Below the pieces are notes generated by a model that was not told the origin of the DNA, searched no databases, and saw only the letters and a list, made by a program, of their open reading frames with translations. 62,562 nucleotides of DNA, from UHGV virus genome UHGV-0106067; one strand, 5' to 3'. The stretch is from a virus. How positions within the stretch are numbered: position 1 is the first letter of the stretch; each line of letters begins with the position of its first letter. Positions 12,022-38,639 of the stretch are shown here, one piece after another. A program made the translations under genes and the position numbers.

Positions 12022-12219
12022 TTAATCATCGCCTCTTACGAACGCAGGGAACGGTCGAACCTCTTCCGCCTCAACTCTGCCGTCATCAAAGGTTTTGACG
12101 TAAATTTCACGTCCGACAAGAAGCGCTTTACTGATCGCGCTCTGCGCCACACCAAAGTCCTTAGCGGCTTTCTTCTGACCGAACCTGTATACGTAATCAG
12201 CCAGGGTCTCTTTTTTCAT
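12022..12219 (-). CDS. cro: Cro repressor
   Basis: [33 protein letters not shown]...EEVRPFP resembles lambda Cro; divergent from cI. Confidence 0.75.
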
Positions 12220-12320
12220 CGCCATAACTGACTCCTTCAAAATGCCCATATCATTACGCACAGTTATTAAAATGTCAACACCGCAGATATTTCATTACAT
12301 ATAACCAAAGGTGATATGGT

Positions 12321-13034
12321 ATGAACATGAAAAAGAAACCGTTAACCCCTGAGCAACTGGAAGACGCCAAGCGTCTGAAAAGTATTTTTAACGCTAAAAA
12401 GAAAGAGTTAGGCCTGTCGCAGGAATCATTAGCCTATGAATTAGGTGTTACCCAAAGCGCTGTTAATCAGCTAATGGCTGGCATCAACGCCATAAATGCC
12501 AGCCACGCAGCACAGCTTGCTAAGATACTGAATGTAAAGGTCGGAGATTTCAGTCCCAGCCTGGCAAAATCTATTGCAGAAATGGCGCTCGCAATTGAAG
12601 AGCCATTAACTCGTGTCCCCGCTTACGAATATCCGTTACTCTCCTGCGTACAAGCTGGCGCATTCTCAATGGATGATATTTCGTACACCGCAAAAGATGC
12701 GATTAAATGGATCTCCACCACCACAAAAGCCAGTGACAGGTCGTTCTGGCTGGAGGTCAAGGGGCATTCAATGACCGCACCGCAGGGTGGTAAACCCAGC
12801 TTCCCTGAAGGTATGCTGATACTCGTTGACCCTGAACGGGAAATCGAGGATGGCGATTTTTGCGTGGCCCGAATGAACGGCGATGAATTTACCTTCAAAC
12901 GATTCATTCGTGAGAGCGGTAAAGCGTACCTGGAGCCGCTCAACCCACGATTCGACATGATTGAGTGTAACGAAAACTGCCAGTTTGTCGGAAAGGTCAT
13001 CAAATCGCAGTGGAATGATGATACTTTTGATTGA
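12321..13034 (+). CDS. cI: CI repressor (lambda CI-like, HTH + S24 LexA-like autopeptidase domain)
   Basis: near-colinear with lambda CI along its whole length ([20 protein letters not shown]... ; [13 protein letters not shown]... ; GMLILVDPE); recognition helix differs. Confidence 0.9.
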
Positions 13035-13130
13035 GCTCACAGAGCGATATTAATAACCTTGCCGGGAGATGCTTGGGAAGCGATTTTCTGGCATTATTAT
13101 CTGAGTTGCCCACAACCTATAGAGTCTTAC

Positions 13131-13292
13131 ATGAAAAAATCATTTGCTGTATTGTTCGTTTTGTTGTCACTGGTAGCTTCGACTCAATCATTCGCTGGTC
13201 GTTGCCAACACGACAATGATACCGCTGCTGACGGCTCTCGTTGTGGTGGTCGTTCTGCTGATTCTCGTCCTGGCGGTGGTGGTATTCGCTAA
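13131..13292 (+). CDS. candidate small secreted peptide (signal peptide + 31-aa Cys-containing tail)
   Basis: MKKSFAVLFVLLSLVASTQSFA-GRCQHDNDTAADGSRCGG...; weak SD; an overlapping alternative frame (13216..13455) encodes a single TM helix, so frame choice is uncertain. Confidence 0.25.
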   Translation: MKKSFAVLFVLLSLVASTQSFAGRCQHDNDTAADGSRCGGRSADSRPGGGGIR

Positions 13293-13296
13293 AAAC

Positions 13297-13322
13297 AAGG
13301 CCGCTTTCCCGGCCTTTATTTC
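13297..13322 (+). terminator. weak terminator/attenuator hairpin inside cI operon
   Basis: aaggccg-ctttcc-cggcctt followed by tatttc. Confidence 0.3.
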
Positions 13323-13471
13323 AATACGTTCAGACAGAATTTTTGGCCTGTTGTTAACTAGTAACCTGAAGAGACGTTTGGGTGATGTTTGGGTGATTTT
13401 AGTTGTGATTAACGAAAACTATGGTGCAACATCTTATAGTAAATTGTTAATATAACAAGGTATTGTATCAA

Positions 13472-14374
13472 ATGAGCCAAAATCTTGATTCAACACTAGA
13501 AACATACATCTCTTGGCAGTTAGAGCAATTTAAGGATAAATTTTTCCCAAACTGTGACGTCATTGCGTACTACGGTGGCATCTTTCCATGGTCAAAAGAA
13601 GTTTACCAGCCAAAACTTGAAGCTATTGGTGAGATGGCTAACAGTCGTACCAATAAATTTCTTGTTATTATACTCAATACAAACGGTGGTTCTGTTGAGT
13701 CTGTAGAAAAAATGGTAGAAATTACAAGGCATTTCTACCAAGAGGTATATTTTATCATTCCAGACATGGCTATGTCGGCAGGTACAATATGGTGCATGTC
13801 TGGAGATAAAATTTACATGGACTATGCTTCTTCATTAGGACCTATTGATCCTCAAGTGCAATCGTCGGACGGTAAATGGGTTCCCGCTTTGGGATACCTT
13901 GATAAAGTTGAAGAAATGATTAATAAATCCAGAGAAGGAACCATTACCCAAGCTGAACTGATGATGCTTAGTCAGTTAGATCTGGCGCACTTGCGGAGAT
14001 ATGAGCAAGCCAGAGAACTATCAATAGACTTGCTTAAGAAATGGCTTGTGGAGTATAAATTTAGAGAGTGGACAGTTCATCAGGGTAACACAAAACGAGG
14101 AAAGCTAGTTACCAAGAGGGAAAAGGAAGCGAGGGCTAAAATGATCGCTACCGCTCTTAGTGACAACGGAAAGTGGCATTCTCACGGAAGAACGATAGGA
14201 ATAAACACTCTTATCAATGACTTAAGGATAAAAGTAGAAGACTTTACATACGATAAAGATTTTAGCATGGCGTTAAAAAATATACATAACGTCATTAATG
14301 AATACATGTATAAAACAAATCGACAGGTTCTTGTTCTGTCTTCTTTCCCTTTTCCAGAACAAAGTGAGTCATAA
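13472..14374 (+). CDS. SDH-family (ClpP/S49-like) serine protease
   Basis: about 300 aa; MSQNLDSTLETYISWQLEQF...NTNGGSVES...MAMSAGTIWCMSGDKIYM pattern recalled for serine dehydrogenase proteinase family; ATG at 13472 preferred over TTG at 13463. Confidence 0.55.
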   Translation: MSQNLDSTLETYISWQLEQFKDKFFPNCDVIAYYGGIFPWSKEVYQPKLEAIGEMANSRTNKFLVIILNTNGGSVESVEKMVEITRHFYQEVYFIIPDMAMSAGTIWCMSGDKIYMDYASSLGPIDPQVQSSDGKWVPALGYLDKVEEMINKSREGTITQAELMMLSQLDLAHLRRYEQARELSIDLLKKWLVEYKFREWTVHQGNTKRGKLVTKREKEARAKMIATALSDNGKWHSHGRTIGINTLINDLRIKVEDFTYDKDFSMALKNIHNVINEYMYKTNRQVLVLSSFPFPEQSES

Positions 14375-14545
14375 ATGAACAAAGACAAATCCCTGACACA
14401 ACAAGTGGAAGAAATACTTAGCAAGCAAAAAGTTAGCGAGCAAGGAAAAATGATTCAATCATTAAAGAACAGGGGCTTGATCAACAAGCCTGTTTTTACT
14501 TTGGCTTATGGACCAGATATTACAACCTGCCAAATGCACCAATAA
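14375..14545 (+). CDS. small hypothetical protein, start abutting protease stop
   Basis: 56-aa ORF MNKDKSLTQQVEEILSKQKV...; ATG immediately follows TAA of protease gene; ends just before terminator. Confidence 0.25.
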   Translation: MNKDKSLTQQVEEILSKQKVSEQGKMIQSLKNRGLINKPVFTLAYGPDITTCQMHQ

Positions 14546-14550
14546 CAAAA

Positions 14551-14577
14551 CCCGGCCTTGGTGCCGGGTTTTGTTTG
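14551..14577. terminator. bidirectional intrinsic terminator between cI operon and hicAB
   Basis: aaaa-cccggc-cttggtg-ccggg-ttttgttt; A-tract and T-tract on either side. Confidence 0.6.
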
Positions 14578-14661
14578 CCTCCTGCTCGCCCCACCATTTA
14601 CCAGTGCGCCGTAAATTCCCCATTCTTCGTGGCGGTGAGGATGTCAAAGACGAAGGGAACA

Positions 14662-15006
14662 TTAAGCCCCTGTGTGATGGTTGACTTCTTTTTCCAGCGC
14701 CTTATTAACAAAGGCGTTCAGTGATAAATCTTCTTCCATCGCCATTTCTGCTACCCGACGATGCAGTTCTGGATCAAGCCTGACGTTAAACACACCTTTA
14801 AACGGGGTATCAGGCTCCTTTCCATCCTCCACACAAGACTGTAAATACAGCTCAACCGATGTCTTAAACTCCTGTTCCAGTTCAGCTAATGTAGAAGCCT
14901 CATAAGTTACCAGGTCTCGAATAAACGCCAGTTTTCCGTACAGGATATTATTTTCAAAATCTGGTTCTACTGTACCTAAATACCCTTTATATTTTAGATG
15001 CTTCAT
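14662..15006 (-). CDS. hicB: HicB-family antitoxin
   Basis: MKHLKYKGYLGTVEPDFENNILYGKLAFIRDLVTYEA... with C-terminal RHH-like segment SLNAFVNKALEKE. Confidence 0.7.
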   Translation of the reverse strand: MKHLKYKGYLGTVEPDFENNILYGKLAFIRDLVTYEASTLAELEQEFKTSVELYLQSCVEDGKEPDTPFKGVFNVRLDPELHRRVAEMAMEEDLSLNAFVNKALEKEVNHHTGA

Positions 15007-15257
15007 AATACCCCAGCCTCTTTCAGATTCTGTTTAATCGCTTTCAGCGTTCCACCTTTAATATAACTTTCTGGATGTGGGCGATGCATTAATATGGTGT
15101 GGTTGATTTCAGCATTGAAAAACCGCACTCTTGAGCCCTGCATTTCCTTTTTGACATCTCCCAGAGAGGAAAACAAAACGACCAGCTCATCCCATTCAAA
15201 CGTTTTTTTACTGTTTAAAAACTTTTCCAGTAGCTTATCTGCTTTCCCCATACCCAC
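15003..15257 (-). CDS. hicA: HicA-family toxin
   Basis: 84 aa, GSRVRFF...HRPHP...GTLKAIKQNLKEAGVL; 4-bp overlap with hicB. Confidence 0.6.
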   Translation of the reverse strand: MGMGKADKLLEKFLNSKKTFEWDELVVLFSSLGDVKKEMQGSRVRFFNAEINHTILMHRPHPESYIKGGTLKAIKQNLKEAGVL

Positions 15258-15502
15258 ATAATCTCATCTTCGCTACATTGCAACTAATTATAGTTACAGG
15301 CAGTGTTTTTGTCAAAAGCCACCAAGCCCGCTGGGTTCTCTTTGACTGTTCGCTGCTTTTCCTGGTGTTATCCGGGGGCTTTTCCCTCACGCCAAATCTC
15401 ACACAGAGTAACCGGCCCGCGCCGGCTTTTCTTTGACCGCACTCCGCTAACCGCCCCCTTGAAAAATAAATCACTTTAAAAATCAGTTAAGTAATATTTT
15501 TT

Positions 15503-37376: not shown

Positions 37377-38639
37377 TTACTTCATCCAGCCTCTGATCTC
37401 TTCGGCTGATGCAGCAGCGCTATAATTCTTCGCTTTTTCCTGTTCGGCTTTTTTATCCCGGAGGTGATTCTGGTACCAAATTTCCAGCTCCTTTTCACGC
37501 CCCGGTTCCAGCAAGGCTGGCATATTGGCGGCAGTCGCTTTGACAAACTCCAGTTTGACCGGATCGCCCTCCGCCCAGGTCTGCCCCTTCTGTAAAAGCT
37601 GTTCAAATTTCTGTTGCTGAATTTTCTGCTGATATTCCGGTAAACCATGCGCAGCTAAAAATTCATCCCTCGCAGCCTGAGCATTACCGCCGTTCTTGAT
37701 CGCTTCCGCTGCTACCTGGCTGGCTTCTTTCTGAATATCTTTCAGAGAAAGCCCCTCCTGCTTCGGCGTGAAATAACCGAAATTTTTCGAAATTTCCGCG
37801 AATTTACTGCGATCCCTGACAAGCTCAACAGCCTTATCAACAGGCACCGCCAGCACGGTTTGATCATCAGGATGTGCACTGCCGTATTCTGTTACAGGTT
37901 TATGCGCGGTGGAGCCATCGCTGTATGTGAGATCAAGGCCAATAAGTACGTACCCTTCCTGCTGCGCCGGTACGATACTGCCAATCCTGGCCTCTTTTAT
38001 CGTCTTTTTCCCGGTTGAATCGGGCATGCCAATACGCTGTTGCAGTTCCGGGGCAAACACACCAGAAAGCGCATCAAGACTTTCCGGGGTATTGAGTGAA
38101 GCGATCGCCCTGTCCGGCTTGTCATCAAAGATTTTTTGCAGGTTGTTCACGGCCTGACCCGCTTTCGCTGCATAGCCTTCACTTGACATAAGAGTTAATG
38201 GATGTCCCTTTGGTAACTGCCCGTAAATACGCATTGCAGCCTCCTGATCGCCAGCATCAATTGCTTTTCCAAGCGCTGTCATTAATGGCTGGCTGTGGGC
38301 AATCATATCGTTATACTCAAGCCGTCGCTGGTTGTATTTTTCCAGTTGCAGCCTCTGCTGAGAAATGCCAAGTGACGCATTCCGGTAATTCTGCGCTGCG
38401 GCGTGTTCCCTCTCTTTCAGCGCATATTCACGATCGGCATTTTTGACATTAAGATCATATGTACGCTGATCATTTTCCTTTCGATGCTCAAACTGCGACT
38501 GCGCAAATTCAAAATCGCGCTCGTTATTTTTCTGTTGTTGAGCAAGCTGTGCTTCACGCAGACCAAGCTCCTTACGACGGGTCATGGCCTGGTCAACGGT
38601 GCTGAATCCGGCAAGTAACCCCTGTGCAAATCCGCTCAT
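37377..38639 (-). CDS. hypothetical virion protein
   Basis: 420-aa ORF, coiled-coil-rich. Confidence 0.45.
   Translation of the reverse strand: MSGFAQGLLAGFSTVDQAMTRRKELGLREAQLAQQQKNNERDFEFAQSQFEHRKENDQRTYDLNVKNADREYALKEREHAAAQNYRNASLGISQQRLQLEKYNQRRLEYNDMIAHSQPLMTALGKAIDAGDQEAAMRIYGQLPKGHPLTLMSSEGYAAKAGQAVNNLQKIFDDKPDRAIASLNTPESLDALSGVFAPELQQRIGMPDSTGKKTIKEARIGSIVPAQQEGYVLIGLDLTYSDGSTAHKPVTEYGSAHPDDQTVLAVPVDKAVELVRDRSKFAEISKNFGYFTPKQEGLSLKDIQKEASQVAAEAIKNGGNAQAARDEFLAAHGLPEYQQKIQQQKFEQLLQKGQTWAEGDPVKLEFVKATAANMPALLEPGREKELEIWYQNHLRDKKAEQEKAKNYSAAASAEEIRGWMK

Follow-up and report, generated by a model that had tools for sequence, protein, structure and literature searches.

A predicted serine protease and a putative small partner behind the cI repressor of a lambdoid prophage: a candidate phage-exclusion cassette

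What would a temperate phage gain from a serine protease gene placed downstream of its repressor gene, in the slot in which phage lambda carries rexAB? This question is raised by UHGV virus genome UHGV-0106067, which was analysed here as a stretch of 62,562 nucleotides (nt), referred to as the window. In its immunity region, a cI-type repressor gene is followed on the same strand by three open reading frames (ORFs), encoding a 53-amino-acid (aa) peptide, a serine protease and a 56-aa protein. All three were found to be present at the coordinates assigned to them in the original prediction, which had been made from the letters of the DNA and had read them as a possible exclusion module composed of a membrane peptide and a protease. 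This architecture was not upheld, as the 53-aa peptide is a separate moron and the system has two genes, those of the protease and its 56-aa partner. The cassette thus delimited (positions 13384–14595), comprising a leader, the protease gene, the 56-aa ORF and a bidirectional terminator, is, judged from its sequence, a good candidate for a previously undescribed type of phage-exclusion module.

The protease and its small partner

A Pfam scan of the protease returned Clp-fold families only. SDH_protease (PF01972) matched residues 62–199 with 44.2 bits, compared with a gathering cut-off of 31.3, and both NfeD1b_N (29.3, cut-off 40) and CLP_protease remained sub-threshold. The protein scored 57 bits against the equivalog cut-off of 250 for NCBIfam NF047768 ('SDH family Clp fold serine proteinase'), and its RefSeq name appears to be looser than the NF047768 model itself; PHROGs assigned it to phrog_11747, a family of unknown function. 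Protein structure prediction using AlphaFold2, with 96 homologues as input, produced a model with a predicted local distance difference test score (pLDDT) of 91.4, for which the top matches among solved structures identified by Foldseek were SppA of Bacillus subtilis, followed by ClpP and 1510-N (probability 1.00). The protein was shown to consist of an N-terminal Clp-fold domain, with Ser102 located in the sequence AMSAGT, and a helical C-terminal domain with the motif WHSHGR, the latter being specific to the family. Since giant-virus 'serine dehydrogenase proteinases' matched the model over its full length (template modelling (TM) score 0.56–0.68, ~290 columns), the helical C-terminal half of the protease is considered to belong to the SDH-type fold. 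The earlier description of this gene product as an SDH/ClpP-like serine protease of about 300 aa was thus confirmed by the Pfam match, the Clp fold of the model and an invariant, intact Ser102.

Residues S102, D144, S237, H238 and R240 were each conserved in 96 of 96 homologues, and K145 in 95 of 96. A profile search of PDB sequences aligned S102 of the AMSAGT motif with the AS-A-G-T nucleophile motif of 1510-N, the nucleophile of which is S97 according to the title of the PDB entry. Ser102 is the predicted nucleophile of the protease, and the general base would be either Lys145 or His238; SppA and 1510-N are both Ser-Lys dyad enzymes. Comparison of the two protease variants present in Escherichia coli revealed 46 synonymous and nine non-synonymous codon differences; the gene is under strong purifying selection and does not represent a fortuitous reading frame, which also holds for the small ORF in view of its conservation beside the protease in other phyla.

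The C-terminal domain was searched for separately among representative proteins (E <= 0.001). All 465 hits were located at the same position in proteins of ~290 aa, or in fragments; with a single architecture among these hits, the possibility that this domain represents a sensor domain shared with other proteins was rejected. A role as a phage head-maturation (prohead) protease was likewise ruled out, as the score for NF045542 was 24.9 compared with a cut-off of 120, and as the gene is located in the immunity region and not in the structural module. The protease forms a divergent clade of its own within the SDH type, marked by the WHSHGR motif and by an obligate small partner.

A deeper branch of the protease family was also observed, with members of 361–416 aa (P0180, P0208, P0218, P0252 and P0270) that possess a C-terminal extension containing two CxxC pairs; this extension looks like a zinc ribbon. 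On the one deeper-branch contig examined (locus L163, 177–1540), the next gene is an overlapping ORF encoding an acidic protein of 57 aa that does not contain the sequence Y-x-L-P-x-x-D-T-I-G.

That sequence forms part of the motif by which the small protein encoded downstream of the protease is recognised. An ORF of 42–91 aa starts between -37 and +36 nt from the protease stop codon in 78 of 82 loci, and tblastn searches with the 56-aa peptide of the window returned matches located mostly just after the protease gene, including in Bacteroidota and Neisseria. A hidden Markov model (HMM) of the small ORF matched 98 of 99 protease loci, the remaining copy, from Proteus, being recognised by eye. 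Some of these loci had also served to train the model; the evidence from ORF geometry and from tblastn does not depend on it. Conservation of the small ORFs with the protease in relatives, the lack of which had been named as a ground for refutation, clearly applies to the 56-aa ORF, and does not extend to the 53-aa ORF, which is missing from the other copies. The 56-aa product is an obligate partner of the protease, to which it is translationally coupled through the TAA-ATG junction between the two genes.

Small-ORF homologues exhibit a mean column identity of ~22%, and share the motif G-[LIV]-x-K-x-x-Y-x-L-P-x-x-D-T-I-G-[KR], which has the form GLINKPVFTLAYGPD in enteric members, FTLAYGPD being their counterpart of the Y-x-L-P-x-x-D-T-I-G part. 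The N-terminal helices and the motif are conserved and are followed by a tail of 8–30 residues that is variable in both length and sequence, the enteric tail consisting of the eight residues ITTCQMHQ. Structures were predicted for both cassette proteins, with different outcomes: the 56-aa partner was modelled at low confidence (pLDDT 67), as two short helices and an extended or β-hairpin tail bearing the motif.

No fitting family for the 56-aa partner was identified in Pfam, NCBIfam or PDB, and no Pfam family was consistent among 72 homologues. A DNA-binding role was rejected, as the only hint (Arg_repressor, E = 0.006) was below the cut-off and occurred in 2 of the 72 homologues. Matches of the small-ORF profile to pentatricopeptide repeat (PPR) proteins in PDB represent an artefact of summed weak repeats, none of which passes as a single stretch. 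Natural fusions of the protease to its partner were not found either: the apparent read-throughs at loci L025 and L063 contain a stop codon, and the longer family members carry the CxxC extension and not the partner motif.

To define the limits of the cassette, the window was compared with 12 further E. coli genomes, in which the region from leader through to terminator is present at 92% identity behind a different cI, the shared identity beginning at position 13384 and ending just past the terminator. A terminator after the small ORF is also present in the copies of E. coli LHM10-1 and Klebsiella, and in the window it closes the cassette on one strand and hicBA on the other. No third conserved gene was found beside the protease and the small ORF in the neighbourhoods examined, nor was a sigma-70 consensus promoter detected in the cassette leader of the window or of LHM10-1. 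These features show a self-contained, horizontally mobile two-gene unit. The cassette had furthermore been described as part of a single terminator-bounded unit with cI. A weak hairpin with a weak U-tract, flagged by the pattern scan on the minus strand only, lies between the 53-aa ORF and the protease gene; a single unit extending from cI to the cassette is therefore plausible in the window, although not certain.

Position behind the repressor, distribution and neighbouring genes

The cI region of the window shares 99.8% identity with Stx2a Oslovirus phages, this likeness ending at position 13048, and the phage is a lambdoid prophage related to Oslovirus Stx phages. A blastn comparison with P13374 showed that the flanks of the cargo block are ~94% identical, identity being lost between positions 13048 and 15412. 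Behind the same cI, P13374, VT2phi_272, GER2 and ArgO145 carry the M.BsuBI/R.BsuBI restriction-modification genes at the position of this block. The 2.36 kb cargo of the window (53-aa peptide, cassette and hicBA) therefore represents an allelic swap for the BsuBI system of sibling Stx2a Oslovirus phages, and the cassette sits where these siblings carry a bona fide defence.

This location was observed in at least six enterobacterial prophage backbones, in which the cassette lies directly behind the repressor gene, on the same strand and divergent from cro. The hosts are E. coli (two immunity types), Klebsiella, Cronobacter, Enterobacter and Proteus. The Klebsiella backbones are Rac-like and their CI protein is of the Phage_CI_repr type, with 155 aa and no S24 domain, and in the Proteus prophage the cassette is located upstream of an N_peptide gene. 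LHM10-1 is a lambda-like E. coli prophage, in which cI is followed by the cassette, a terminator, a pL-like promoter and N; neither a promoter nor a terminator was found from cI to the protease gene. Both the exchange with the BsuBI system and the recurrence in six backbones bear out the original placement of this cargo in a rex-type slot distal to cI.

In IMG/VR, 57 viral contigs encode the protease, and the two positions upstream of the protease gene were scanned in the 45 contigs that remained after dereplication. The 90 ORFs concerned included 22 with Peptidase_S24, 10 with Phage_CI_repr and 19 of the Cro type; a repressor gene is thus located upstream of the protease gene in 22 to 32 of the 45 contigs, the range allowing for possible overlap of the two repressor domains. 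According to Owen et al. (PMC8585504), rexAB and bstA are located in a mosaic hotspot, the cI-N region, and the immunity regions of Gifsy prophages add remAIN and GiPD474 (PMC12724215). Together with restriction-modification systems, these genes make the repressor-distal region of temperate phages a known reservoir of lysogen-expressed defences. The cassette is a recurrent occupant of this slot in prophages of Enterobacterales that has neither a functional annotation nor a model in defence databases, and it is classed here as putative lysogen-expressed cargo of the immunity-region hotspot.

Within E. coli, the cassette is rare, being carried by 17 of 5426 complete genomes (~0.3%), five of which contain the whole 1,561-bp block. 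After clustering at 90%, the protease family as a whole still comprises more than 4,400 proteins. When one genome per species was considered (185,579 species), 342 loci were identified across many phyla, at ~50% identity, and the pairing with a small ORF extends to Bacteroidota, Acidobacteriota, Gemmatimonadota and other phyla. No close homologue was present among 50,697 deposited phage genomes, in which seven records matched at 26–31% identity. Cassette copies were found in 7 of 72,556 plasmid records. One of these, NZ_CP130669.1, is a 111-kb E. coli plasmid that carries the cassette at 37441–38637 beside a gene for a LexA-family repressor, and may represent a phage-plasmid. The G+C content of the cassette is 35–43%, compared with 47–55% in its flanks. 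Among ~257 neighbour proteins, a modest number belong to restriction-modification, toxin-antitoxin (Gp49/HigB-like, AAA_21, Fic) or candidate defence functions, and the neighbourhoods fit a small autonomous mobile cassette.

The features of the immunity region, which is flipped relative to the map of lambda, are listed in Table 1.

Table 1. Coordinates of features in and around the cargo block of the window
Feature	Position	Strand	Basis or remark
cro	12022–12261	-	Divergent from cI
cI-type repressor gene	12321–13034	+	Pfam HTH_3 and Peptidase_S24; cassette downstream on same strand
Variable cargo block of immunity region	13049–15411		Replaces M.BsuBI/R.BsuBI genes of sibling phages
53-aa signal-peptide ORF	13131–13292	+	phrog_14503, 'membrane associated protein'
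Weak hairpin after 53-aa ORF, possible partial terminator	13297–13316	+	-10.8 kcal/mol, z = -3.2; followed by UUAUUUCAAU
Conserved 5' leader of mobile cassette (~88 nt)	13384–13471	+	92% identity to other E. coli copies starts at 13384
SDH-type/ClpP-fold serine protease (300 aa, counted from ATG)	13472–14374	+	Pfam SDH_protease, AlphaFold2, Foldseek
56-aa partner ORF	14375–14545	+	ATG directly after protease TAA; phrog_28875
Bidirectional intrinsic terminator	14544–14576		13-bp perfect stem between A-tract and U-tract; -21.2 kcal/mol, z = -4.5
hicB	14662–15006	-	Pfam HicB
hicA	15003–15257	-	Pfam HicA_toxin
hicBA promoter	15315..15287	-	Perfect consensus TTGACA-17-TATAAT; pattern scan
Rha-type regulator gene			Bounds cargo block on side away from cI

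Besides the cassette, the cargo block contains two further elements. The 53-aa ORF encodes a Sec-type signal sequence (MKKSFAVLFVLLSLVASTQSFA, then G), and its mature part consists of 31 residues and is rich in Gly and Cys. This ORF was absent from the 12 other E. coli cassette copies and from the other cassette lineages examined, and TL-2011b, phiv142-3 and Klebsiella phages possess it in the absence of the protease. As it is missing from other copies and found alone in other phages, it is an independent moron, a neighbour and not a component of the cassette. The hicBA genes represent a separate type II toxin-antitoxin pair within the same block, located on the opposite strand to the cassette and served by their own promoter.

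Elsewhere, no tRNA genes were found in the whole window. The window did not match the stx1a region of strain 2015C-3121, no search having been made for stx2. A prophage of this strain has the same immunity region as the window, with only patchy similarity outside it.

Candidate functions of the cassette

The reading that we prefer, at slightly less than even odds (a probability of roughly 0.45), is that the cassette represents a protease-based superinfection-exclusion or abortive-infection module, which would be expressed in the lysogen and in which the small protein would serve as a pseudo-substrate or regulator. A lysogen-expressed function is favoured by the consistent placement of the cassette after cI. 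Transcription in the lysogen would occur mainly by read-through from the cI promoters, and the protease and its small partner would follow a logic resembling that of a toxin and its antitoxin. The small protein would dock its extended motif in the protease cleft, where it would either inhibit the enzyme as a pseudo-substrate or serve as its sacrificial substrate or sensor. An infecting phage would then remove or outcompete the small protein, and the freed protease would cleave its target, a highly conserved component of the cell or of the phage. High conservation of that target is suggested by the ~50% identity that the protease retains between phyla, and such a target would be worth identifying.

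Several observations weigh against this reading. In the window, a hairpin and an extra ORF separate cI from the cassette, making lysogenic expression less certain than in LHM10-1. The proposed docking of the small protein in the active site is conjectural, and the partner model is of low confidence (pLDDT 67). The 56-aa ORF differs between the E. coli variants by five synonymous and five non-synonymous changes, indicative of weak constraint over this short range. When the protease and the 56-aa and 53-aa ORFs were compared with PADLOC-DB v2.0.0, no family was returned at E <= 0.1, so that a defence function for either cassette protein is without homology support. Furthermore, outside Gammaproteobacteria the neighbours of the cassette are mostly housekeeping genes, and enrichment in defence islands outside prophages is weak at best.

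A wider version of the exclusion proposal, which we put forward more tentatively, holds that the cassette is a pan-bacterial anti-phage system, in which a ClpP-fold protease held by a pseudo-substrate would be released upon infection to cleave a universally conserved target, and which temperate phages would have captured repeatedly into the slot beside the repressor gene, thereby protecting their lysogens.

Among the alternatives, that of a pure addiction cassette survives best, although we consider it unlikely. One product of such a toxin-antitoxin pair would be toxic and the other would neutralise it; the pair would stabilise the prophage or mobile element and play no part against phages. 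Much of the genetic organisation would suit this explanation, namely a compact operon of two translationally coupled genes that ends in a terminator of its own, a patchy and horizontally transferred distribution, the adjoining hicBA pair, and the presence of Gp49/HigB-like, AAA_21 and Fic proteins near some copies. However, neither a DNA-binding domain nor a known antitoxin domain was detected in the small protein, and the cassette is placed consistently behind cI rather than anywhere in the element. As many toxin-antitoxin pairs also defend their host, this explanation moreover overlaps with the exclusion module proposed above.

Alternatively, the two proteins could form a peptide-maturation pair, in which the protease would cut the small protein at its motif and free the C-terminal tail as a signal, regulator or toxin. 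The succession of helices, motif and variable tail does resemble a leader, a cleavage site and a core, and there is a precedent in the NfeD/stomatin pairing, where a ClpP-fold protease is encoded beside its substrate and to which 1510-N, the best PDB sequence match of the protease, belongs. Nevertheless, a signal peptide is absent from the small protein, neither an export gene nor modification enzymes are encoded nearby, no candidate receptor was identified, and the enteric tail has only the eight residues mentioned above. This renders peptide maturation improbable.

Slightly less probable still is a fitness or quality-control protease acquired by lysogenic conversion, which would benefit the host outside any conflict, for example in stress or envelope proteostasis. 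The location of the pair among housekeeping genes in most non-proteobacterial genomes would be in accordance with such a function, as would the unusually high conservation of the protease across phyla. Against it stand the rarity of the cassette, both in E. coli and among the 185,579 species, its AT-rich, foreign composition, the differences in context between close relatives, and the restriction-modification genes that sibling phages hold in the same slot.

The striking linkage of the cassette to cI-type repressor genes in prophages could also indicate a regulator of the prophage life cycle, in which the protease would act on a repressor, an antirepressor or a host factor and thereby tune the maintenance or induction of lysogeny. 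The repressors that precede the cassette are, however, unrelated to one another (S24-containing in some cases, the 155-aa Phage_CI_repr type without S24 in others), making a common repressor substrate unlikely. In addition, the great majority of loci in other phyla have no adjoining repressor or prophage genes, and sibling phages function with restriction-modification in place of the cassette; we therefore give this explanation little weight. The least probable proposal is a three-part system in which the membrane or secreted 53-aa peptide, the protease and the 56-aa ORF act together, since the adjacency of these three ORFs on one strand in the window and in the other four E. coli genomes with the 1,561-bp block is offset by the lack of the 53-aa ORF in every other cassette lineage, its independent travel in other phages and the hairpin of its own that separates it from the cassette.

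If the exclusion module is what the cassette encodes, it would constitute a new class of defence effector, namely a self-contained protease of the ClpP fold that comes with its own small regulator. If toxin-antitoxin activity or peptide processing applies instead, the pair would still represent a new family of protease-partner pairs, with members numbering in the thousands.

Comparison with known systems

Literature searches using the family name, the Pfam accession, RefSeq protein accessions and the underlying concept yielded no paper on a module composed of this protease and its partner. In combination with the PADLOC result, this agrees with the original view that the arrangement does not correspond to a described exclusion system. 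With regard to position, the rexAB genes of lambda are similar to the cassette in slot and topology, with two genes on the cI strand in the order seen in LHM10-1, but no sequence or domain similarity was found between them. RexB is a membrane channel and RexA is its sensor; unlike RexB, both cassette products look soluble, and one of them is a protease.

BstA of Salmonella prophage BTP1 is encoded directly after cI, is thought to share the cI promoter and has its own terminator, and the synteny of bstA with the repressor locus is conserved across prophages (PMC8585504). The cassette resembles BstA in its position behind cI, and differs from it in that BstA acts as one protein and has no relationship to Clp-fold proteases. 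BstA also has a self-immunity element based on DNA, the like of which was not seen in the window, no search aimed at it having been made. The BsuBI restriction-modification system occupies the same position behind the same cI, although its biochemistry, involving a methylase and an endonuclease, is unlike that of the cassette. Type II toxin-antitoxin systems share with the cassette two small, adjacent and co-oriented genes with coupled translation, whereas the partner protein has no recognisable DNA-binding or known antitoxin domain.

With regard to the protease, the best PDB sequence match was 1510-N of the Pyrococcus NfeD/STOPP system (3bpp, E = 1.7e-5), a ClpP-fold protease encoded beside the protein upon which it acts, stomatin. 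No membrane segments were seen in the cassette protease, and neither SPFH nor any other Pfam domain was found in its partner; identity as an NfeD/STOPP-stomatin operon was ruled out by the absence of an SPFH partner and by the sub-threshold NfeD1b_N score (29.3 compared with 40). The best structural match was SppA of B. subtilis (3rst and 4kwb; Foldseek E = 5e-6, TM 0.42–0.54, 17% identity). SppA is membrane-anchored and acts outside the cytoplasm, and, unlike the cassette protease, it has no separate partner gene. In structure 4kwb, however, its own C-termini occupy the active sites, which provides a precedent for pseudo-substrate control.

With regard to function, Lit of prophage e14 is a single-gene zinc metalloprotease that is triggered by a phage peptide and cleaves EF-Tu, whereupon infection is aborted. 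Although Lit has no homology to the cassette protease, no partner protein and a different slot, it represents the closest functional analogy to the proposed module, being a prophage-encoded protease employed for exclusion.

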